The notes under the pieces: generated by a model
Seen by the model: the letters and a program-made list of their open reading frames with translations, nothing else
What the model was told of the DNA's origin: nothing
Databases searched by the model: none
Shown here: positions 5,359 to 38,691 of the stretch, in pieces
Numbering within the stretch: position 1 is the first letter of the stretch
Layout of the letters: each line of letters opens with the position of its first letter
Made by a program: the position numbers and the translations under genes
Assembly (NCBI GenBank): GCA_030538235.1
Contig: JAUNUJ010000006.1
Span: 17,699-81,698, forward strand
Reading direction: 5' to 3'
Origin: Alcaligenaceae bacterium
GTDB taxonomy: Bacteria; Pseudomonadota; Gammaproteobacteria; Burkholderiales; Burkholderiaceae_B
Length of the DNA: 64,000 bases

Positions 5359-5466
5359 ATTTGTTGAAGGCGATGAGTAAAGAATAGAGTAAGGCAAAGT
5401 ATTTTTTAATTTTGCATTGACTGGATAAAGCTAATTAACTTCGTTAGCAACATAGCTGATAAGCCA

Positions 5467-5835
5467 TCACGCATACCTCAACGGTGCGCTCTCAAAGTGT
5501 TTTTTAATCGGTTGAACTCTGCCGGCCCACTCGCCGATCAGCAAGTTTTTATAAGCAGGCCATTGGCTGTCATGCAAGTCATCACACATTGCATGAATAC
5601 CCCAAAACTGTAAATACCACATAGAAGCCAGTGGAAAGATTCTTAGGTCATCTTCCGCCGGTTGGAGTTCGGATGATAGTTGTTGGTAGAGTTGACGTAA
5701 TTCGGCGACGTTTCCTTGGCATAAGAAAACCGAGTTTTGCAGAGGATACCCTTGGGCACTTAGTTGTCGATGCACGCGACGTAAGCGTCGAGGATGAGCG
5801 ATATCGTAAGCAATCAAGTACCAGTACTTAAGCAT
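5467..5835 (-). CDS. cas2: Cas2 with C-terminal extension
   Basis: YLIAYDIAHPRRLRRVHRQL...LQNSVF motif; ATG at 5835 overlaps the cas1 stop. Confidence 0.88.
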   Translation of the reverse strand: MLKYWYLIAYDIAHPRRLRRVHRQLSAQGYPLQNSVFLCQGNVAELRQLYQQLSSELQPAEDDLRIFPLASMWYLQFWGIHAMCDDLHDSQWPAYKNLLIGEWAGRVQPIKKHFESAPLRYA

Positions 5836-6763
5836 CTTGACCTTCCTGTGGTGAGGCCAGTTGGTCAAGGGACTTACTTAACCAGCGGTACATAACTTTT
5901 AATTGCTTGTCCCACAACGGTATTTGGTGATCAAGGGCTTCATAATAGCGTAGACGACCGGCTTTTCCTAATAAGCATTGCTCTGCTTGATGACTAAAAT
6001 CTCTGGGATGCAGAATGTCTTCGTGAAATAAGAAAATAACCCAACTTTCTATTGCCGGACGTAATGGTTCTGTCAGATCACAAGCTAAAGAATGCCTACC
6101 ATGACTAAGACGATGATAAAAACCAAGCCTTGAATCCATTCCTACAGCGATAGCGTGGCGAACAGCTAAATTATGTGCCATCACATAGGATAATGATAAA
6201 ACCGCATTAACCGGGTCTTTGGGAGGGCGACGATTACGGTGAGTGAATTGCAGGGCAGGAGAGGTATATTGGCGTAAAACCTCAAACGCTCGTTGTTGCA
6301 AGGCGCCTTCGATACCGCGGATTTTTTGTTCAGTTATATCAGCTTGTTGCAAAGCAACTAGAGCGCTTTGGGCAAAATCACTCGCCTGACCAAAATGACT
6401 ACTTAACTCACGTTGGCAACGTTTGAATTTCGCTGCACAGAGTGATTGTATAAGTGGGAGTCGCATGCTCTCATTACTCTGCAGCTCATACTGCACTAAA
6501 CGGCGTTTTAATTGTAACGCTTCATCAGCAAATAAAGAAAAGCTGTGTGCATAATAACGTTGATTAATAACGATTAGGTCAATACCGCGTTTTTTTAATT
6601 GACCAATCAGTTGAGTGCTTAAGCGCACATTATGCATACAAACCAATTGCGTGATATGCCTTAAAGGAATCGTGCGTGGCGACTCGTTTTCTGTGCGCAC
6701 AATAATGCAGTCGGTGCTGTACTCGAGCTCCGTGTTGCGTCGGTCAATAATCATCTGCGACAT
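5828..6763 (-). CDS. cas1: Cas1 integrase
   Basis: RGIEG, RNRRPPKDPVNAVLSLSY, LGFYH, SLACDLTEPLRP motifs. Confidence 0.95.
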   Translation of the reverse strand: MSQMIIDRRNTELEYSTDCIIVRTENESPRTIPLRHITQLVCMHNVRLSTQLIGQLKKRGIDLIVINQRYYAHSFSLFADEALQLKRRLVQYELQSNESMRLPLIQSLCAAKFKRCQRELSSHFGQASDFAQSALVALQQADITEQKIRGIEGALQQRAFEVLRQYTSPALQFTHRNRRPPKDPVNAVLSLSYVMAHNLAVRHAIAVGMDSRLGFYHRLSHGRHSLACDLTEPLRPAIESWVIFLFHEDILHPRDFSHQAEQCLLGKAGRLRYYEALDHQIPLWDKQLKVMYRWLSKSLDQLASPQEGQDA

Positions 6764-11760: not shown

Positions 11761-12351
11761 ATGAGCAAACAAGCGGAATACTTCCACGAAAAATATGGCA
11801 TCACTAAAACCCATTCGGCTGTGGTTGATGCGATGGCGCATGTGGCGCCATGCAAAGCCTTAGATTTGGGCTGTGGCCAAGGGCGTAATGCGCTCTACTT
11901 GGCGTTACAAGGGTTTGATGTCACTGCTAGCGATTACAACCCAGGCGGCTTGGGAAGTATTGAGGCGATGGCTCAGGCCGAGGATTTGCGGGTGCGCACA
12001 GAGGTTTATGATATGAATCAGGCCGCAATCAATGAGCACTATGACTTTATGATTGCTACAGTTGTCTTTATGTTTTTAAATGCTCAGCGTGTGCCGGATA
12101 TCATTGCCAATATGAAGGAGCAAACCCAAGCCGGTGGTTATCACTTAATCGTCTCCGCCATCGATACTGAGGACTATCCTTGTCATATGCCATTTTCATT
12201 TACCTTTAAAGAAAATGAACTAGGTGATTACTATCAGGATTGGCAATTAATCGAGTACAAAGAAGAGGTGGGTTCGATGCACGCACGTGATGCGCAAGGT
12301 CAACCGATTCAATTAAAGTTCGTGACCATGTTGGCGCAAAAGCCGATTTAA
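11761..12351 (+). CDS. tehB: SAM-dependent methyltransferase TehB
   Basis: YFHEKYG.TKTHS, ALDLGCGQGRN, GGYHLIV, F.F.FKENEL motifs. Confidence 0.9.
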   Translation: MSKQAEYFHEKYGITKTHSAVVDAMAHVAPCKALDLGCGQGRNALYLALQGFDVTASDYNPGGLGSIEAMAQAEDLRVRTEVYDMNQAAINEHYDFMIATVVFMFLNAQRVPDIIANMKEQTQAGGYHLIVSAIDTEDYPCHMPFSFTFKENELGDYYQDWQLIEYKEEVGSMHARDAQGQPIQLKFVTMLAQKPI

Positions 12352-12587
12352 GTAGACGGTATCGGCGTCTGATCTAAAGGCGCCTCGCAAACCTCAAGGC
12401 AGCGAATTTATTGATACAGGACTTGAATGGCAGAGGAGCAGCGACATAAAAGCGTCGAATACTGAAGTTAAATGCCGCTTGAAAGGTTTTCTCTTTGTTA
12501 TTAAACAATGACCTTGTGTTTTTTGACAGAAAAGCCGGGTATTTATCGTCAAAGATCTATAACTTTCCTAAGGACGGAGCAGCAATA

Positions 12588-13205
12588 ATGTATTACGGTG
12601 AACGGTTTAACAGTATTTCTCATTTGAGCGGTGCAGTCCTAGCGCTGGTTGGCATGGTGCTATTGATTGTGCTCGGAGCGCAGGCCGGAGACCCATGGAA
12701 GATCGTGGGTTTTAGTATTTACGGCTCGATGCTGCTTTGCTTATATCTTGCATCGACTTTTTATCATAGCTTTCGTGGTCGGGCCAAGGAAATTTGGTGC
12801 AAATTTGATTATTGCACAATATATTTGTTGATTGCCGGTAGCTATACACCCTTGGCTTTGGTCAGTTTACGTGGTGCTTGGGGTTGGTCACTATTTGGTG
12901 TGGTTTGGGGCTTGGCAATCTTCGGTATTATCCAGGAGATTTGGTTGGCTCGTGGCAAGCGAATTTTATCGATGGTGCTTTATGTACTGATGGGTTGGTT
13001 GGTTGTTATTGCCATTGGCCCATTGAGGGATGCCTTGGGTAGTGCCGGCTTTTTATGGTTACTGGCCGGGGGACTCGCTTATACCGTCGGTATTGTGTTT
13101 TATGTTAATGACACTCGCTGGCGCCATGCGCACGGGATCTGGCATCTCTTTGTATTGGCAGGGAGTGCGTGTCACTATGTGACCATGGCGTTTTATGTGG
13201 CTTGA
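12588..13205 (+). CDS. trhA: Hemolysin III / PAQR family membrane protein
   Basis: ERFNSISHL, AST.YH, D...IYLLIAGSYTP, HGIWHLFV motifs. Confidence 0.9.
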   Translation: MYYGERFNSISHLSGAVLALVGMVLLIVLGAQAGDPWKIVGFSIYGSMLLCLYLASTFYHSFRGRAKEIWCKFDYCTIYLLIAGSYTPLALVSLRGAWGWSLFGVVWGLAIFGIIQEIWLARGKRILSMVLYVLMGWLVVIAIGPLRDALGSAGFLWLLAGGLAYTVGIVFYVNDTRWRHAHGIWHLFVLAGSACHYVTMAFYVA

Positions 13206-13350
13206 GCTTGGGGTTTTTAAAACGATGGATTTTGTGGCTTAAGCATTAAGCAGTTCAAGTGGCGATTTAAAGCCTCAAGTTAATTGAACGAATAGTCAAA
13301 GCAGCAAGGGCTTAGTTAATGTCGGTATTTAGAATCAAAACTTAACATAA

Positions 13351-13642
13351 GAGCACAAAGAATATGCTCACCTCGATCAATTGCTTGGAGCATATTTCAA
13401 TCAAGACTACGCTCTTTTTTTGGAACAGATGACATAGAATTTGTGCTTGATTTTATGTTAAAGATAATTCAGCAGAATACTTGTACCAATTAATGAAGGA
13501 AATAGCTGATTTTGAATTGAAGTATGTTGACTGCGTAGATGAGGAATTTGAAAAAATCTTCGATCCTGATCTATGTTTTGACGATGTGCAGGGCTTCCTC
13601 GATATAGTCAAAGAGAAGGTTCAGAAACAGCTAGAGGTTTAA
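13351..13642 (+). pseudogene. Frameshifted CdiI-like (contact-dependent inhibition immunity) gene remnant
   Basis: Restoring one T each at the T7 run (13415-13421) and T4 run (13451-13454) gives EYAHLDQLLGAYFNQDYALFFGTDDIEFVLDFYVKDNSAEYLYQLMKEIADFELKYVDCVDEEFEKIFDPDLCFDDVQGFLDIVKEKVQKQLEV*; no start codon. Confidence 0.55.
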
Positions 13643-13732
13643 ACCTAAATTTAAACATAAAAAGGGGGGCACTCTGTATACATCAAGATGATGAGGCTGG
13701 GAAATCCTCCCAAGCTCTCAATAGTATATTAG

Positions 13733-13748
13733 ATGTATTAGACATTTA
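13733..13748 (+). repeat. Left copy of 16-bp direct repeat ATGTATTAGACATTTA
   Basis: Exact match to 19078-19093. Confidence 0.85.
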
Positions 13749-14007
13749 GACACAGCTAAACCCTCCTTTTTAACTGTCTCTGACCTTAGCAGATTAACCG
13801 GTCAAGTTAATTGTCGCTCTATATAGAGATAAGTATTTATGTTACGGGTACTTTTAAACCTCTAAAATTCATAACACGCTAACCAAGTGTTAACAGACTG
13901 GATTGGATTTCATGACCATCAATACTCACTCTGTCCTTGGGCATAAGGTCACCCATTGAGGTCTGAGAGGCTTTAGCGACATAACGTGTTTAGAAAATGT
14001 TGACTCA

Positions 14008-15495
14008 TTACAAAATTTCTGACGTCTTAGTAGACGGAATACTCGTCATTTCGCACGCCTTTGCCCCGACACGTTCGATAGCTGAACGATATTTCTCATT
14101 GAATGGATAACAACAAGAAATTCGTAATGCATTCTTATAATCCGATTTGGGTGAATACAATGCGCCGGGCGTGAGAGATATCTTCTCTTTAAGCATCGCC
14201 CTGTGCAACTCTACTGTATCAATATTTCCTGGTATTTCTACCCAAAAAACAAAGCCTCCTTGTGGCTTTGTTGTACGAGTTCCAACAGGAAAGTGTCTGG
14301 CGATTAAAGACAGCGCTTGATTCATATTCTCCTTGTAATGCTTACGTAATTTTCGCAAGTGATGATCATACCCACCGGTTTCTAAAAACTGAGCAATGGT
14401 TTCACTTAATAATTTGGATTCTGTCATCGAAAGTTGTTTTTTTAATCGCTGTATCTGACGACTGTAACGACCAGCGCATATCCATCCGATTCGGAAATCT
14501 GGTGCGAGAGTTTTAGTAAAACTTGAGCAAAAAATAATCCAGTTGTCACGATCAAAGGCTTTTACGGCAGGCAAGGTTTGATCAAATTGCAGCTCACAAT
14601 ACAACCCATCTTCTATCAGAGGAACCTGATATTGATTAACTAACTGTGCTAATCGTTGTTTCGATTTAAGGGGCATACTACAACCGAGTGGGTTGTGTAA
14701 ATTTGGCATACACACAATGGCTTGAATCTGCTTTTTCTTCATCAACACTTCAAGGGTATCAACCGATAAACCTGTTTCGGCGTTTGTGGGAATTTCGATT
14801 ACACGTAAACCCAATGTCGCTAGTAGCGGTATTAAATAAAAATAGGTAGGTGATTCTAGGGCCACACAATCGCCTGCTTTAGTGGTCGCTAAAAGTGCCA
14901 AATGGAGTGCGTCTAAGCAACCATGCGTAATGGTGATTTCATCAATATCAATAACGGCACCGACATCTAGCATACGTCTGGCTATTTGATGCCGTAAATT
15001 AAGACTGCCTGGCGGCAACGCATACTCACAGATGATATTGGGTTGGCGACGTAAGGTCTGTCTCAAAATTTTACTTAACTTTTCACTTGGATAAAATTCA
15101 GAATCATGAGTTGGACAAGCTAGAGAGATATTCGTGAAGTCTGGGTTTTGTTGAGTAGCAAAGGTTGTTTCAATTAACCTCAATACGCTTTGGTCAGGAG
15201 GGGCACTGGCACTGTCTGTAGAAAGCGTTCGTTTAAGTCTAGGCGGTTGATTGCACACATAAAAGCCAGACTGCGGACGAGCCTGTATCAATCCCTGGTC
15301 CTCCAGATGACGGTATGCAGCAACGACTGTATTAATACTGATCGCATAAGTTTTTGCCGTATCTCTTATCGAAGGAAATCTTGTGCCAGCTTTAAAAGTA
15401 CCTAAACTTATCGCTTGGCTTAATTTTTTACTTAGTTTCAGATACAGAGGTTTATTTTTCGAATCTTGTTGGTAAAAAAGGTGAGCATTAGGCAC
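14008..15495 (-). CDS. MocR/GabR family regulator (GntR wHTH plus PLP aminotransferase-like domain)
   Basis: PSIRDTAKTYAISINTVVAAYRHLEDQGLI HTH; NPLG, IEDGLY, SFTKTLAPDFRIGW; GTG start with AGGAG RBS. Confidence 0.93.
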   Translation of the reverse strand: MPNAHLFYQQDSKNKPLYLKLSKKLSQAISLGTFKAGTRFPSIRDTAKTYAISINTVVAAYRHLEDQGLIQARPQSGFYVCNQPPRLKRTLSTDSASAPPDQSVLRLIETTFATQQNPDFTNISLACPTHDSEFYPSEKLSKILRQTLRRQPNIICEYALPPGSLNLRHQIARRMLDVGAVIDIDEITITHGCLDALHLALLATTKAGDCVALESPTYFYLIPLLATLGLRVIEIPTNAETGLSVDTLEVLMKKKQIQAIVCMPNLHNPLGCSMPLKSKQRLAQLVNQYQVPLIEDGLYCELQFDQTLPAVKAFDRDNWIIFCSSFTKTLAPDFRIGWICAGRYSRQIQRLKKQLSMTESKLLSETIAQFLETGGYDHHLRKLRKHYKENMNQALSLIARHFPVGTRTTKPQGGFVFWVEIPGNIDTVELHRAMLKEKISLTPGALYSPKSDYKNALRISCCYPFNEKYRSAIERVGAKACEMTSIPSTKTSEIL

Positions 15496-15898
15496 AATTA
15501 ACTCCTTTTAGGTAGTCGCTGTTGAATTATTTGTTAACTGTACCCATGACAATAGCCCATTACTGCTACTGTTTCAATTAAGAGATTTAGATTATTCTTA
15601 AATAGTAGTTGTGAAATTAGAGAAGTAACACTTAATAAATCTCCTTAACCATGTGTTTTCACAATTCAGTTATTTTGGCTTGTGCCTTTTTAGGTAAGTC
15701 TACGTTGATAGATTATTGAAAATTTTTATTTTTATATTTGATTGTTTAGTAGACGATTACCCTTCAGTACCTAAGATAGATGGTCTATTTACTAATGTAC
15801 TTTAGCGATATTTACCAGACAATTACTATTCTTTAATATTTAACTATGATGAGTTCACTCAGATTTCTTAGACTGCAATAATCATTAGGAGCTAACTT

Positions 15899-16798
15899 AT
15901 GACTAACCTGCTAAGTTATACAGGTAATACTCCAATTATAAAGATTGAGAATATATTTTATCCAGATAAGGCTGATATTTTTGTGAAATTAGAAGAGTTC
16001 AATCCTGGAGGAAGTGTTAAATCAAGACCAGGTGTACATATGGTTCTTGATGCACAGGAAAAAAAGCTGCTAACAAAAGACAAGATTTTACTCGAACCGA
16101 CAGGAGGTAATACCGGGTTGGGTATAACTATCGCTGCTGTTTCTCTAGGATATAAAGTGCATTTAGTTATTCCGGATAATTTCAGCAAAGATAAAATTAA
16201 AAATTTAGAAAGCTATGGTGCCAAAATTATATTATCTGATCATACAACAGGTCCGGGGTCCCATGTTAGATTGGCTAATCAGATATTAGAGTCTGAAAAT
16301 AAGTATATATGTTTAGACCAATTCTCTAACCCTGCAAATCCTATGTCACATTATTTAACTACAGGTCCAGAAATAATCAACCAATTAAAAATACGCAAAG
16401 TTGATGCATTTATTGCAGGTATTGGAACTGGAGGAACTTTGATGGGGGTTGGTAAATATTTAAAAGGAATTAACGCTAACATCAAAATTATTGGTGTCCA
16501 ACCAGAGGGTTGTGATTTCATGAATAATATATTCATCCCACATAAAATCGAAGCGATTGCCGTTGGCTTTATTCCTCCAATAGTTGATTTGGAAATGATT
16601 GATCATATGATAAGTGTAGATTTTTATGAGGTGATGGAATTAAGAGATTGGCTGAGTAAAAAAATGGGCCTTTTTGTTGGTATTTCATCAGGTGCAAATA
16701 TTCTTGCTGCTCTTAAAGAAGCAGCTAAATATCCAAAAGGAAAATTTATTATTACAGTAGCACCAGATAGTGGTAGGAGCTATATAGCTTATGAGTAA
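15899..16798 (+). CDS. Cysteine synthase family PLP enzyme, variant
   Basis: GNTP, KLEEFNPGGSVKSR (PLP Lys), EPTGGNTG, DQFSNPAN, GIGTGGT, GISSGAN, PDSG. Confidence 0.9.
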   Translation: MTNLLSYTGNTPIIKIENIFYPDKADIFVKLEEFNPGGSVKSRPGVHMVLDAQEKKLLTKDKILLEPTGGNTGLGITIAAVSLGYKVHLVIPDNFSKDKIKNLESYGAKIILSDHTTGPGSHVRLANQILESENKYICLDQFSNPANPMSHYLTTGPEIINQLKIRKVDAFIAGIGTGGTLMGVGKYLKGINANIKIIGVQPEGCDFMNNIFIPHKIEAIAVGFIPPIVDLEMIDHMISVDFYEVMELRDWLSKKMGLFVGISSGANILAALKEAAKYPKGKFIITVAPDSGRSYIAYE

Positions 16799-17450
16799 GT
16801 TTCAGGATATATCTCTGCTTTCTATTTCTGATGAGGAACTTATCCTTTCAAAGGTAGTTGGTGTGCTAAGCAAATTTGGTATTTATTATTTAAGCAGGCA
16901 AGAAATTCTTGAAATATGTTCTGCCTTGAATACGGATATGAATGCCTTCTTACAGAAAGACCCCTCAACAAAAAACGATAGCAAAAGTTTTTTGTTATCA
17001 TTTTCTTCTTTTGATGCAGTCATTGGTTATCGAATAGCTCACCATATATTAGATCACTATGAAAAAACAGTCGATTCAAAAAAAATATCAGAATACTTTA
17101 AGATTAAAACTGGTATTGAAATACACTCTGCTGCCGTAATAGGTCATAGCTTTGTCATTGACCATGGAGTTGGTACAGTAATAGGAGAAACCTGTGTTAT
17201 AGGAAATAATTGCTATTTCTTACAACAAATCATCTTAGGTTCTTCTCAAATTGCTTTTAATAATCAAGAGAGTAGACACCCCATTATTGGGAATAATGTT
17301 GAAATAGGCGGATTTGCTCGAATTTTTGGAAAGGTACGTATTGGTAATAATGTAAAAATTGCTCCTCATTCTATTATCAGAGTCGATATTCCTGATAACA
17401 GCTCAGTAATCATGGAAAGTAATGAACAAAAAATCGTTTTGAGAGACTAA
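16791..17450 (+). CDS. Serine O-acetyltransferase-like protein
   Basis: DP, YRIAH, GIEIH, IDHGVGTVIGET, RHPIIG hexapeptide repeats; start overlaps the upstream stop. Confidence 0.85.
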   Translation: MSKFQDISLLSISDEELILSKVVGVLSKFGIYYLSRQEILEICSALNTDMNAFLQKDPSTKNDSKSFLLSFSSFDAVIGYRIAHHILDHYEKTVDSKKISEYFKIKTGIEIHSAAVIGHSFVIDHGVGTVIGETCVIGNNCYFLQQIILGSSQIAFNNQESRHPIIGNNVEIGGFARIFGKVRIGNNVKIAPHSIIRVDIPDNSSVIMESNEQKIVLRD

Positions 17451-18298
17451 TGAAGAATTTATTGTTTTTCTTGACACTTTTCTTCATTACCTGTTTAGCA
17501 ACTGGCGGAATATTTGTAAAGCTTAGTGAATTAGGGCCTGTTACAACAGGATTTTATAGAGTTCTATTTAGTATCCCGATGCTATATCCTTTGCTAAGGA
17601 TGGAAAAAAATTTTTCTTTGTCTATAAAAGATAAAGTGGTGATATTTATTGCTGGCATGTTCCTTGCTGGAGACTTAATTTTATGGAACATTTCTTTCCA
17701 CTACACTACAGTTGCTAACGCAAATTTATTAGCAAATTTAGTGCCATTTACGATTATTCCTTCAGCATATTTTTTCTACAAAGAGAAAGTATCTCGTAAT
17801 TTTTTATTCAGCTTGATTGTTACGTTAATTGGCTTAATCATCTTAATTAACGGCAAGGTTAACCCTAGTCAAAGCAATTTGTATGGCGATATGCTGGCAT
17901 TTGCTACATCTATTTTTTATGCGGCATTTTTACTTATTGTCTATAAGGTAAGAAGGCAAGCATCAGCAATACAGATTATGTATTACAGTGGATATGGGGC
18001 TATGGTAATACTACTTATAAGTAGCATTGTAATGGAAGGTGTGACTTATCCAACTAATTTTCAAACCTTATGGCCACTACTAGGGTTGGCAGTTTTTTCT
18101 CAAATATTAGGTCAAGGAGGACTTAGCTATGTTTTAGGTAAGATCTCCGTCAATTTAGCGGCTGTTCTTGTTTTAACACAGCCAGTCATTTCAGCAATTT
18201 TATCTTATTTTATTTTTCATGAAACCTTATCCATACAAGAGATGTTAGGCCTCTTTATTGTGCTAATGGGTATCTTTTTAGTAAAAAAAGAGCATTAA
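17450..18298 (+). CDS. EamA/DMT family exporter
   Basis: About 10 TM helices in two EamA-like halves; TAATG stop-start overlap. Confidence 0.88.
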   Translation: MKNLLFFLTLFFITCLATGGIFVKLSELGPVTTGFYRVLFSIPMLYPLLRMEKNFSLSIKDKVVIFIAGMFLAGDLILWNISFHYTTVANANLLANLVPFTIIPSAYFFYKEKVSRNFLFSLIVTLIGLIILINGKVNPSQSNLYGDMLAFATSIFYAAFLLIVYKVRRQASAIQIMYYSGYGAMVILLISSIVMEGVTYPTNFQTLWPLLGLAVFSQILGQGGLSYVLGKISVNLAAVLVLTQPVISAILSYFIFHETLSIQEMLGLFIVLMGIFLVKKEH

Positions 18299-18319
18299 TT
18301 TATATTAAAGGATGAACCA

Positions 18320-19066
18320 ATGCGCGCAACAATAAAACGTTATTATGAAGACACGGATGTAATTAGCTGTAAAGCTAAAATCCTTAAGATCCATGAGTCG
18401 GCGATAGAACTCGATCAGACGATAGCTTATCCAGAAGGGGGTGGCCAAGAAGGTGATCATGGTTGGATTCGTTTATGTGCTGATCCTAGCATGGCTATTG
18501 CATTTAACGATACTCAACTTAGCATGGCTACACCTGTTTTTATCGACGATTTTCCTAGCGTCAAAACAGGTGGGATTATATTGCACCATATTTCAAATAA
18601 AGATCGTTTGATTGACTTCGAGATTGGTGATGAAGTGTGGATAGAAATTGATCAGCAGCGCCGAAAAAGTATGTCTTTAAATCATACCGCCGCTCATATT
18701 GTTTACTGGGCTGTTGATATGTATCTACCTAGTGTGGTGGATCATACCATTGGTTGTCATATAAAAACTGATAGTGCTAGGCTAGATTTTGCAACTGAAG
18801 ATCGATTTAGTCAAGAAGACATAAATGAAATTGAGGAATTGAGTAATAAACTAATTAAAGCTGGACACCCAATCATTATGCGTTCACGACAAGATTATTA
18901 CGATGTGCGTTATTGGGAATGCGATGGTTACGTGATTCCCTGTGGAGGCACGCATGTCAAAAATACGAATGAACTTTCTTTACTGAAATTACAACGAAAA
19001 AACATTGGAAAAGGTAAAGAGCGCCTTATCTTTTCGCTCCAGAATCCAACTGAAGTTGAACGATAA
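18320..19066 (+). CDS. Free-standing alanyl-tRNA editing protein (AlaX family)
   Basis: LDQTIAYPEGGGQ.GD, zinc motifs HTAAH and CGGTH, ARLDF. Confidence 0.88.
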   Translation: MRATIKRYYEDTDVISCKAKILKIHESAIELDQTIAYPEGGGQEGDHGWIRLCADPSMAIAFNDTQLSMATPVFIDDFPSVKTGGIILHHISNKDRLIDFEIGDEVWIEIDQQRRKSMSLNHTAAHIVYWAVDMYLPSVVDHTIGCHIKTDSARLDFATEDRFSQEDINEIEELSNKLIKAGHPIIMRSRQDYYDVRYWECDGYVIPCGGTHVKNTNELSLLKLQRKNIGKGKERLIFSLQNPTEVER

Positions 19067-19077
19067 TTTCGTTTTAT

Positions 19078-19093
19078 ATGTATTAGACATTTA
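19078..19093 (+). repeat. Right copy of 16-bp direct repeat ATGTATTAGACATTTA
   Basis: Exact match to 13733-13748; 11 bp after the AlaX stop. Confidence 0.85.
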
Positions 19094-19237
19094 TCAAATT
19101 TGCAATTAACAAACGAAAAAAGCCTAGTCATGAGTCTTCCTGACCAAGCTGAAGTTTTATAGTGGTTTGTGAAATTAACTCATCAAATGCTCTGAGTTTT
19201 CTTCTTATTCCATACCAATTCAAACGTGTAAAAAACA

Positions 19238-19272
19238 AAAACCCCGATAAAACAATATGTTATCGGGGTTTT
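19238..19272. terminator. Bidirectional terminator downstream of tRNA-Ser
   Basis: AAAACCCCGATAA...TTATCGGGGTTTT perfect inverted repeat. Confidence 0.75.
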
Positions 19273-19315
19273 CTATCGTTGCTAAAGTCTCTTAGTGTCT
19301 CTAGCGTTTCATCTT

Positions 19316-19409
19316 TGGCGGGAACGGAGGGATTCGAACCCTCGATACAGGTTTAAGCCCGTATGCTTCCTTAGCAGGGAAGTACCTTCAGCCTCTCGGT
19401 CACGTTCCC
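19316..19409 (-). tRNA. tRNA-Ser(GCT)
   Basis: GGGAACG/CGTTCCC acceptor stem, CTTCC-CT-GCT-AA-GGAAG anticodon arm, long variable arm, GTTCGAATC, encoded CCA. Confidence 0.95.
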
Positions 19410-19478
19410 AAAGAATTTATAATTATATAGTTAAATAGTAATTTTAGCTAGCTAATTCGAGTATAAAGTTAAAATTTA

Positions 19479-20741
19479 TTACTCTTCTGTTGTATTGTTA
19501 CCTAGATCAAAGGCTTGATGTAGGGCACGAACCGCCAGTTCCATGTATTTGTCTTCGATTAGCACTGAGGTTTTGATTTCGCTGGTGCTGATCATCTGGA
19601 TATTGACACCTTCATTGGATAAGGTGCTGAACATCTTACTGGCAACACCGGCGTGAGAGTGCATGCCGATACCTACGATAGATACTTTACAGACTTTATC
19701 ATCAGTAATTACTTCGCGAGCATCGATATTTTTTAATACAACCTCGTTGATCACTTTGATCGCTTGCTTGAAGCCGGCGCGGTTAACGGTAAATGAGAAG
19801 TCTGTGGTGCCGTCGACTGACTGGTTTTGAATAATCATATCAACATCGATATTGGCATCAGCGATAGGGCCAAGAATGCCGTAAGCAATGCCCGGACGAT
19901 CAGGGACACCTAGGATAGTAATTTTGGCTTCATCGCGGCTGAACGCGATACCGGAAACAACAGCAGCTTCCATACTTGGATCTTCCTCAATAGTAATTAG
20001 GGTGCCTGAAATAATTTCTTCTTCGACAGGAATTTCAGGATCGGTTAATGATGATAAAACACGTAGCGGCACTTTGTATTTACCGGCAAACTCCACCGCG
20101 CGAATTTGTAACACTTTGGAGCCTAAGGAGGCCATTTCCAGCATTTCTTCAAAAGAAATCACACTCATGCGGCGCGCCTCAGGCACCACGCGAGGGTCTG
20201 TGGTATAAACGCCGTCCACATCGGTAAAAATTAAGCACTGCTCAGCGCCAATGGCAGCAGCAATCGCAACTGCGGAGGTGTCTGAACCACCACGGCCCAG
20301 GGTGGTGATATGACCATTTGGGTCAATGCCCTGAAACCCAGTCACAATAATCACTTTACCGGCGTCTAAATCGCCTTGTATGCGGCTGCCATCAATCTCT
20401 TTAATACGCGCCTTAGTAAAGGCACTATCGGTTTTAACCGGCACTTGCCACCCGGTGTAACTACGGGCATCAATGCCTTGGGCTTGTAGAGCAATCGCGA
20501 GGAGGGCGCTACTAGCTTGTTCGCCGGTGGCGGCTAACATATCGAGTTCACGGGGATCAACGTTGTCAGAGAGATCGTTGGCTAAACCTAATAAGCGATT
20601 GGTTTCACCGGCCATTGCTGAAGGGACGACAACCACTTGATGTCCTGCCCTGTGCCACTTGGCAACACGCTTAGCAACATTTTGAATGCGTTCAACAGAA
20701 CCCATAGAGGTGCCGCCGAACTTTTGTACGATTAGGGACAT
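19479..20741 (-). CDS. lysC: Aspartate kinase
   Basis: VQKFGGTSMG, TTLGRGGSDTSA, DVDGVYTTDPR, two ACT domains. Confidence 0.97.
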   Translation of the reverse strand: MSLIVQKFGGTSMGSVERIQNVAKRVAKWHRAGHQVVVVPSAMAGETNRLLGLANDLSDNVDPRELDMLAATGEQASSALLAIALQAQGIDARSYTGWQVPVKTDSAFTKARIKEIDGSRIQGDLDAGKVIIVTGFQGIDPNGHITTLGRGGSDTSAVAIAAAIGAEQCLIFTDVDGVYTTDPRVVPEARRMSVISFEEMLEMASLGSKVLQIRAVEFAGKYKVPLRVLSSLTDPEIPVEEEIISGTLITIEEDPSMEAAVVSGIAFSRDEAKITILGVPDRPGIAYGILGPIADANIDVDMIIQNQSVDGTTDFSFTVNRAGFKQAIKVINEVVLKNIDAREVITDDKVCKVSIVGIGMHSHAGVASKMFSTLSNEGVNIQMISTSEIKTSVLIEDKYMELAVRALHQAFDLGNNTTEE

Positions 20742-32752: not shown

Positions 32753-32777
32753 AAGTCTTATGTCTTATATAAGACTT
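32753..32777. promoter_or_regulatory. Palindromic operator AAGTCTTATGTCTTATATAAGACTT upstream of acnB
   Basis: Perfect 9-bp arms; the 19-nt core is identical to the site at 38671-38689. Confidence 0.8.
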
Positions 32778-36587: not shown

Positions 36588-37469
36588 TTATTTTTTCGAA
36601 TATAAATTATCTAAGTATTCTTCAAATTCAAAGTAGCCGATGCTCTCGTAGAGTTCCATACGAGTCTGCATGGTGTCAACGACATTTTTCTGGTGACCGT
36701 CTTTGCGAATCGCTTCGTAGACGTTTTGAGCAGCTTTGTTCATGGCGCGGAAAGCGGATAATGGGTATAAAACCATGCCAACATCGACACTGGCCAACTC
36801 ATCGACTGAGAATAAAGGCGTCGCACCGAACTCAGTGATATTGGCTAAAACCGGAACGTTTAAGTTATCGGTAAAGAGTTTATACGTTTCTAAATCATGC
36901 GCTGCTTCGACGAAAATAGCATCGGCACCGGCTTCGGCGCATTTATGAGCACGCTCTAGCGCCGCTTCAACGCCAAAGCTTTGGATCGCATCAGTACGGG
37001 CAATGATATAGAAATCGGGATCGGTTTTGGCGTCAACAGCGGCTTTGATGCGGTCAATCATTTCTTCAGTAGAAACGATTTCCTTGTTAGGGCGGTGGCC
37101 ACAACGCTTAGCACCGGCTTGGTCTTCAATGTGGCAGGCGGCGGCGCCGAATTTAATTAAACTTTTAACGGTACGAGCAATATTAAAAGCGGATGGGCCG
37201 AAACCGGTATCGATATCAACTAATAAAGGCGTATCACAAACATCAGTGATGCGACGGATATCAGTCAGTACATCATCGAGGGTGTTAATGCCTAGATCAG
37301 GCAGACCCAATGAACCGGCAGCAACACCGCCACCGGATAGGTAAATTGCTTTGAAACCGGCGCGTTTAGCTAATAATGCGTGGTTTGCATTGATGGCGCC
37401 AATGATTTGTAGTGGCTTTTCTTCAGCTAAGGCTTTACGAAAAGCGGCACCTGCAGAAATTTGACTCAT
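36588..37469 (-). CDS. prpB: 2-methylisocitrate lyase
   Basis: IYLSGGG, KRCGHRP, ARTDA. Confidence 0.95.
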
Positions 37470-38668: not shown

Positions 38669-38691
38669 TATCTTATGTCTTATATAAGATA
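38669..38691. promoter_or_regulatory. Palindromic operator TATCTTATGTCTTATATAAGATA between mdh and the GntR regulator
   Basis: 19-nt core TCTTATGTCTTATATAAGA identical to the acnB site. Confidence 0.8.

Follow-up and report, generated by a model that had tools for sequence, protein, structure and literature searches.

The systems closest to the locus described here are genomic islands inserted at tRNA or tmRNA genes by P4-type tyrosine integrases, composite transposons and translocatable units, products of homology-facilitated illegitimate recombination or short-homology Campbell integration and, with regard to gene content, operons lying divergent from a MocR regulator of the GabR/PdxR type. 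The locus is part of a stretch of 64,000 nucleotides from an Alcaligenaceae bacterium (contig JAUNUJ010000006.1 of assembly GCA_030538235.1; henceforth the window) and consists of a MocR-family regulator gene and a divergent four-gene operon (CysK-like, serine O-acetyltransferase-like or SAT, EamA and AlaX-like), which we jointly refer to as the cassette, situated between a TrhA-family gene and an aspartate kinase gene (Table 1). An exact 16-bp direct repeat, ATGTATTAGACATTTA, occurs once on either side of the cassette, and a first-pass annotation of the sequence had read the two copies as attL/attR-like scars of a mobile unit. We favour a different reading, to which we give a probability of roughly 0.55: that the locus is a decayed, tRNA-linked mosaic island, and that the 16-mer is the footprint of one event, neither the end of the transferable module nor a reusable att site.

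Like tRNA/tmRNA islands, the DNA inserted in the window abuts the 3' end of a tRNA-Ser gene, its last 30 bp match an island of a sister species that has classical 25-bp tRNA-derived repeats, and it combines low-GC cargo, pseudogenes and a mosaic structure; in other genomes the cassette lies beside an integrase fragment and a tRNA-like end (contig L290) or beside ssrA and an integrase remnant (Alcaligenes). Unlike such islands, the window segment has neither an integrase nor a second tRNA 3' end, and its 16-mer, unrelated in sequence to the tRNA, is internal to the inserted DNA instead of marking its edges. Composite transposons and translocatable units share with it the recombinase-less cargo between direct repeats, as also seen in Alcaligenes, where a five-gene block lies between IS3-like OrfA fragments. 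By contrast, the repeat in the window is just 16-20 bp long, with no insertion sequence (IS) features and no inverted repeats at the ends of the unit; there is no transposase between the 16-mer copies, and two transposases tested from a related locus had no homologue in the window. The order seen here, in which the insert lies between X-16mer and 16mer-Y (X and Y being the outer flanks), resembles that left by homology-facilitated illegitimate recombination or short-homology Campbell integration, with the 16-mer and Y shared with a donor-like contig (L271), a 1-nt microhomology at the left joint and nearby indels that look microhomology-mediated. Homology-facilitated illegitimate recombination is, however, a process and not a family of elements, it normally deletes recipient DNA rather than duplicating it, and here it is one candidate mechanism among others. 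Finally, as in operons of the GabR/PdxR type, a regulator with a GntR helix-turn-helix (HTH) domain and an aminotransferase fold is divergent from genes of amino-acid metabolism related to pyridoxal phosphate (PLP), with a conserved block at its start codon, although the window MocR scores under every equivalog cut-off of PdxR, GabR, EhuR and similar models.

The borders of the inserted DNA were defined by sites that lack it. The flanking genes place the window in Alcaligenaceae, near Oligella and Advenella, and in eleven independent contigs of a sister species (91% identical to the window in TrhA and 94% in aspartate kinase) there is no cassette: TrhA is followed by ~76 bp with a terminator, tRNA-Ser(GCU) and aspartate kinase. 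Compared with these empty sites the window has gained ~6.1 kb, bounded by the TrhA stop (13206) and the tRNA-Ser 3' end (19315), i.e., more than the 5.36 kb between the repeats, and the insertion starts exactly at the tRNA-Ser 3' end, which in the empty sites adjoins the terminator. The first-pass annotation had expected a single 16-mer at cassette-free sites, and had named its absence there, or breakpoints lying elsewhere, as findings that would speak against its reading. None of the 11 sites has the 16-mer, even at up to two mismatches, and the breakpoints lie at the TrhA stop and the tRNA-Ser 3' end; the reading thus fails in part by its own reasoning. These sites represent a sister species rather than conspecific strains, and a single-copy target in the direct ancestor is still compatible with them.

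In a further sister-species contig (L264; JGI 3300038957) the same tRNA-Ser 3' end is occupied by an island between direct repeats of 25 bp derived from the tRNA, ATCTTTGGCGGGAACGGAGGGATTC, and the 30 bp with which this island meets the intact tRNA have their homologue in 19286-19315 of the window. The 22-mer of the tRNA end, TTTGGCGGGAACGGAGGGATTC, occurs twice in L264 and once in the window at up to three mismatches, so that no second tRNA 3' end was found there; the 16-mer is unrelated to it, as the first-pass annotation had stated. The open reading frames (ORFs) of 13206-19315 (a cdiI pseudogene, MocR, CysK-like, SAT, EamA and AlaX-like) include no tyrosine integrase, two integrase fragments from related loci had no match in the window, and the earlier remark that no recombinase lies inside the repeats also held, the five ORFs there being those of the cassette. 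Based on the 30-bp match to an island end, the missing second tRNA end and the frameshifted CdiI_2 pseudogene (an orphan immunity gene between TrhA and the left 16-mer, missing at the sister-species empty sites), we read 13206-19315 as a mosaic in decay, devoid of an integrase, at a tRNA-Ser hotspot. The L264 island (positions 1720-2120) is scaffolded, with a run of N as its interior.

The cassette itself recurs well beyond this site. Across Oligella, Alcaligenes and metagenomic relatives, its five genes occupy at least six distinct chromosomal settings as a group and in an unchanged order, and they are linked, with the regulator adjacent to and divergent from the operon, in the window, in L161/L251, in L243/L246/L248/L249 and in L308-L311. 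Specifically, in Oligella sp. MSHR50489EDL and matching Logan contigs (L161/L251) the cassette lies between ChaC and PdxH at 90% nucleotide identity, with homology covering exactly 14001-19076; in O. urethralis it lies between DctM (TRAP transporter) and FecCD (iron ABC system) at ~80% identity; and in one organism represented by two contigs (L289 and L312) it is next to DsbA-SPOR-ArgRS. Truncated cassettes occur in L290-292, with L290 continuing into an integrase arm-binding fragment and a tRNA-like sequence before the contig ends, while L293 holds a copy 340 bp from another tRNA-like end in which MocR stands beside the distal genes and the CysK and SAT genes are deleted. In Alcaligenes (75% nucleotide identity, 81% identity for MocR) the cassette adjoins ssrA and an integrase remnant and stands between two direct copies, 407 bp each, of an IS3-like OrfA fragment; in CP123895.1 (reverse complement, L308) the tmRNA lies at 5459-5820 and the two repeats, ~99% identical copies of a degenerate IS3-like OrfA, at 6224-6630 and 11993-12399, an arrangement that looks composite-transposon-like. 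Flank-to-flank alignments among the different contexts were no better than shuffles.

The G+C content of the module is 0.32-0.44, compared with 0.45-0.50 in this host (along the window, 0.32-0.41 between the repeats and 0.44-0.51 outside them), and the module keeps 0.32-0.44 in Alcaligenes, whose genome has 0.57. Given that the five genes co-occur across contexts together with a conserved block at the MocR start, retained in all four contexts aligned, the comparison of sequences indicates that regulator and operon are one low-GC module moving horizontally on different vehicles, and that in Oligella and Alcaligenes the five-gene set recurs as a module that has repeatedly been transferred and has repeatedly decayed. 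The first-pass annotation had likewise tied the regulator and the operon together, and this part of it is borne out by the neighbourhoods, the low G+C content in two hosts and the conserved block (15536-15602). Its idea of a mobile unit survives in so far as the module does move between genomes, but the 16-mer is not the boundary that is carried: the unit common to genomes is 14001-19077, and not 13733-19093. By the same comparison the repeat does not enclose the cassette exactly, since only the right copy starts 1 nt past the cassette end at 19077, whereas the left copy stands 252 bp outside the left end at 14001, the gap being an unrelated non-coding fragment (fragment F) that is not beside the cassette in Oligella sp. 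MSHR50489EDL.

Decay of the cassette was seen repeatedly (L241, L242, L247, L161). The CysK and SAT genes are deleted in the O. urethralis contigs L242 and L247; in Oligella sp. MSHR50489EDL (L161) they are fused, with window 16407-17269 missing; and in O. urethralis CP137240.1 genes for DDE_Tnp_1 and rve transposases replace window 15178-18064. The MocR gene (G+C content 0.40-0.44) is richer in G+C than the operon (0.32-0.36) in both hosts, and the regulator and the enzymes may have been joined from different sources before the module spread.

How the 16-mer relates to these units was clarified by L271, a metagenome contig whose FMO gene, 90% identical at the protein level, assigns it to a relative of the sister species. 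Read in window orientation, it has DNA homologous to 13748-13816, then toxin-antitoxin genes, the final 122 codons of AlaX up to 19077, the 16-mer and parts of 19094-19206. The stretch 13748-13816 is shared at 85%, L271 diverges left of exactly 13748, and only the right copy of the 16-mer is present in it. The right end of the cassette is sharp at 19073-19077 in four flank types, one base ahead of the right 16-mer. The homology breakpoints 13748|13749 (against L271) and 19077|19078 were thus mapped independently of the repeat, and each is touched by a copy of the 16-mer. Of the other contexts, only L271 shares the left end at 13749 (that of Oligella sp. MSHR50489EDL is 14001), and the duplication recurs in no other context. 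Since both copies sit exactly at homology breakpoints, they probably mark a real recombination event, and the likely origin of the pair is a single event in this lineage, either an insertion or a short-homology recombination. In L271 the truncated cassette (950-2946) lies amid toxin-antitoxin genes (HigB/HigA-like, an RHH antitoxin, DUF6290/ParE), with GNAT acetyltransferase and pirin genes further along.

For the mechanism and the order of events, which we infer, the favoured reading would run as follows. The DNA at ~13206-19315 would be a decayed mosaic island, without its former integrase, at a hotspot formed by a tRNA 3' end, and its cargo would be the 5.1-kb module 14001-19077, spread among Alcaligenaceae on different vehicles. 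A single event in the window lineage would have put 13749-19077 (fragment F plus the module) beside sequence bearing the 16-mer, giving X-16mer, segment, 16mer-Y, with one copy on each side. This event may have been a target duplication or a Campbell-type crossover at the 16-20-bp identity; it may also have been homology-facilitated illegitimate recombination that used the 16-mer together with the right flank as its anchor and made the illegitimate joint 16 bp within it. All three fit and are not distinguishable here.

Several points weigh against this account. A target duplication of 16 bp is long for known transposases, and 16 bp is short for a RecA crossover. Chance alone should give about one exact 16-mer pair somewhere in a window, and the present pair was noticed post hoc. 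In L271, which has fragment F, the end of AlaX, and the 16-mer with the right flank, the left copy is missing; either it was lost there or it arose later in the window lineage. Finally, no conspecific strain or pre-insertion site (i.e., the cdiI pseudogene, a single ATGTATTAGACATTTA and then TCAAATTTGC from 19094) was found, and the event is therefore reconstructed. A search of sequencing runs with the left junction returned no run, and one with the right junction only runs with 8% shared words, probably owing to the tRNA gene; exact look-up of the window's aspartate kinase gave no record, and a genome scan with it gave distant homologues, with no close relative among the matches listed.

We then weighed whether the repeat needs a historical explanation at all. 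The first-pass report of an exact 16-mer on each side was confirmed by a search of the window, which found these two copies only and no third at up to two mismatches; the repeat extends 4 nt leftward with one mismatch (19/20; TTA[G/T]ATGTATTAGACATTTA, i.e., TTAgATGT... on the left and TTAtATGT... on the right). Two AT-rich intergenic stretches might share such a word with no historical or functional meaning. Simulated windows hold 0.5 (order-1 Markov) to 1.2 (order-3) exact direct 16-mer pairs, and 38-58% of them have at least one; the window itself has three independent repeats outside its CRISPR (clustered regularly interspaced short palindromic repeats) array, two of them besides the pair studied here; the word is AT-rich and in part made of short degenerate tandem units; and the identical 20-mer occurs by chance in unrelated phage and freshwater contigs. 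Yet the probability of an exact 16-mer shared by just those two intergenic stretches that border the cassette, 802 nt and 249 nt long, is ~1e-4 (an extrapolation from a simulated 0.005 at k=13, together with an analytic value of 1.6e-4), and the inner edge of each copy lies 0-1 nt from a breakpoint set by other genomes, which under random placement contributes roughly a further 1e-2 x 1e-2. Considering this placement and the independently mapped breakpoints, pure coincidence is unlikely. We give very little credence to the idea that the 16-mer is a functional motif (e.g., a protein-binding site) needed at both positions: it does contain a small ATGT/ACAT dyad, and a palindromic, operator-like 19-mer at 32756/38671, in two divergent promoter regions, illustrates that operators can yield such repeats here, but the dyad is only 4 bp, both copies sit downstream of convergent or terminal genes and outside promoter regions, neither is kept beside the cassette in other hosts, and an Rfam search over 13100-19500 found the tRNA only. 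A promoter and terminator scan placed nothing at either copy, and promoter-like sites were fewer than in shuffles.

The attL/attR proposal holds that a recombinase encoded elsewhere recognises the 16-mer as its core or its specific target, and that it could still mobilise 13733-19093, itself without a recombinase. It accounts for an exact direct repeat at both ends of a low-GC insert, for the coincidence of both copies with homology breakpoints and for a cassette that is clearly mobile among genomes. It does not explain why the 16-mer stands on both sides of the cassette in no other context, nor why those contexts have no comparable repeat (no flanking direct repeat longer than 9 nt, Alcaligenes IS3-like fragments excepted). 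At up to 2-3 mismatches the 16-mer was absent from ~4.5 Mb of related loci, the other cassette contexts and the 11 empty sites included, save for the right copy in L271; in 185,579 representative genomes (GTDB) the 20-mer gave a single match, in an unrelated Paenibacillus, and only one of its 20 metagenome matches was related, again L271, while the viral and remaining metagenome matches fall in a coding stretch conserved in unrelated phage or freshwater contigs of low GC. Moreover, the unit shared between genomes ends at 14001 and not at 13749, there is no dif-like or integron core site at the junctions, four recombinases of related loci have no homologue in the window, and the cassette was in fact seen with tRNA/tmRNA integrase remnants and IS fragments as its vehicles. 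Nothing we found points to an att site or to continuing mobility, and we consider this explanation improbable. A variant of it, in which an unrecognised site-specific system has the 16-20-bp sequence as its core and a recombinase, encoded elsewhere, that moves the recombinase-less 5.3-kb unit of regulator and operon, with L271 as a derivative that has lost the left site, seems to us very improbable; if true, it would represent a new kind of trans-mobilised cassette in Alcaligenaceae. The case is a caution that a short exact repeat around an island is easily taken for attL/attR, while empty sites and other copies reveal the tRNA 3' end as the real border.

Other classes of mobile element were examined at the ends of the unit. 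An integron cassette was rejected, as neither 16-mer junction has GTTRRRY/RYYYAAC and the only matches are inside the AlaX 3' end, and so was a Xer/dif module, for which the best match to E. coli dif was 14/28 at both junctions, equal to the shuffle mean. There was no inverted repeat between 13749-13860 and the sequence left of 19078 (best local score 16, the level of an 8-nt match), the repeat families listed no inverted-repeat pair joining both ends of the unit, and no IS stands at either cassette end in the window. We also considered whether the minus strand of fragment F might hold the start of an IS or transposase gene (a GGAGGG resembling a ribosome-binding site, plus GTG), but dropped the idea, as the extended frame in L271 matches no Pfam family; a viral search with a conserved 20-mer of fragment F gave no match.

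Table 1. Features of the locus between TrhA and aspartate kinase, in window coordinates.
Feature	Position	Strand	Basis or remark
TrhA/hemolysin-III family gene, left chromosomal flank	12495-13205	+	Pfam HlyIII, NCBIfam TrhA
CdiI_2-type contact-dependent-inhibition immunity pseudogene, two frameshifts	13330-13642	+	Three-frame reading; read-through translation against PF18593 CdiI_2, E=1.9e-10
Left 16-mer copy	13733-13748	+	Inside a run of degenerate ~8-9 nt units (GTATATTA GATGTATTA GACATTTA GACACAGC)
Fragment F, 252 bp, non-coding, from left 16-mer to cassette	13749-14000		Comparison with relatives
MocR-family regulator (GntR HTH and aminotransferase-like)	14008-15495	-	Divergent from operon; conserved module begins at 14001
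Block adjoining MocR start	15536-15602		Kept in 4/4 aligned contexts (window, L251, L243, Alcaligenes L308)
CysK/CysM-like PLP beta-replacement enzyme	15899-16798	+	PLP lysine, GIGTGGT, QFxNPANP and SSGA motifs kept; scores under equivalog cut-offs
SAT-like hexapeptide transferase	16791-17450	+	Without C-terminal Ile
EamA/DMT-family transporter	17450-18298	+	Domain match
AlaX-like free-standing alanyl-tRNA editing domain	18320-19066	+	HxxxH and CxxxH zinc motifs intact
Final 11 nt of conserved module, TTTCGTTTTAT	19067-19077	+	Homology with other close contexts stops at 19073-19077
Right 16-mer copy	19078-19093	+	Present also in L271, in the same place behind truncated AlaX
Right flank	19094-19206		19094-19110 and 19171-19206 common to L271; missing at sister-species empty sites
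G+C-rich hairpin with flanking A and T runs, terminator-like	19240-19275		Read from sequence; unlisted by terminator scan
30 bp adjoining tRNA 3' end	19286-19315		Homologous to L264 island end; missing at empty sites; true right edge of inserted DNA
tRNA-Ser(GCU), integration hotspot	19316-19409	-	tRNA detection, relatives
Aspartate kinase, right chromosomal flank	19479-20741	-	Domain match

With regard to individual features, the real start of TrhA is probably near 12588, as relatives are 205 aa long and match residues 32-236 of the annotated frame, and the block at 15536-15602 is a candidate for the MocR operator and the divergent promoter region. The CysK-like protein retains the phosphate- and substrate-binding motifs, and the EamA/DMT transporter is a probable exporter.

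While the structure of the locus is of an ordinary kind, its cargo is moderately interesting, and the more useful result is the cassette itself: a recurrent transferred module, the transferable unit of which has different ends from the repeat. Homologues of SAT, AlaX and CysK are also linked, at ~40% identity, in Bermanella, Marinobacter and Zoogloea. Because an O-acetylserine-dependent beta-replacement enzyme is linked here to a trans-editing factor and an exporter, the gene content suggests either of two functions. The cargo might be a module for tolerance and export of serine or O-acetylserine, or it might make a beta-substituted alanine with built-in protection of tRNA charging; both functions are open to ordinary genetics and biochemistry. 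Related gene groups were seen on two plasmids: in Xenorhabdus sp. TH1 (NZ_CP147736.1, L287) CysK-SAT-DMT lies near an L-serine ammonia-lyase gene, an extra valine-tRNA ligase gene and an AlaX gene, and in Salmonella India (NZ_CP022016.1, L288) AlaX occurs with CysK-SAT-methyltransferase-AzlC beside an integrase.

The window contains further repeats at a distance from the cassette. A CRISPR-like array at 425-1700 repeats a ~36-nt unit, GTCTGAGACATTGCCCTGTAACTAAGGGATTAAGAC, ~19 times at a period of ~70 nt. An exact 19-nt repeat, TCTTATGTCTTATATAAGA, at 32756-32774 and 38671-38689, contains a 12-bp palindrome, TCTTATATAAGA; its copies lie in two divergent-promoter intergenic regions 5.9 kb apart, and it resembles a shared operator rather than a mobile-element scar. 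Finally, a third exact 16-mer pair, TATTGGCTAAAACCGG, at 36839 and 59643, is 22.8 kb apart and probably due to chance.

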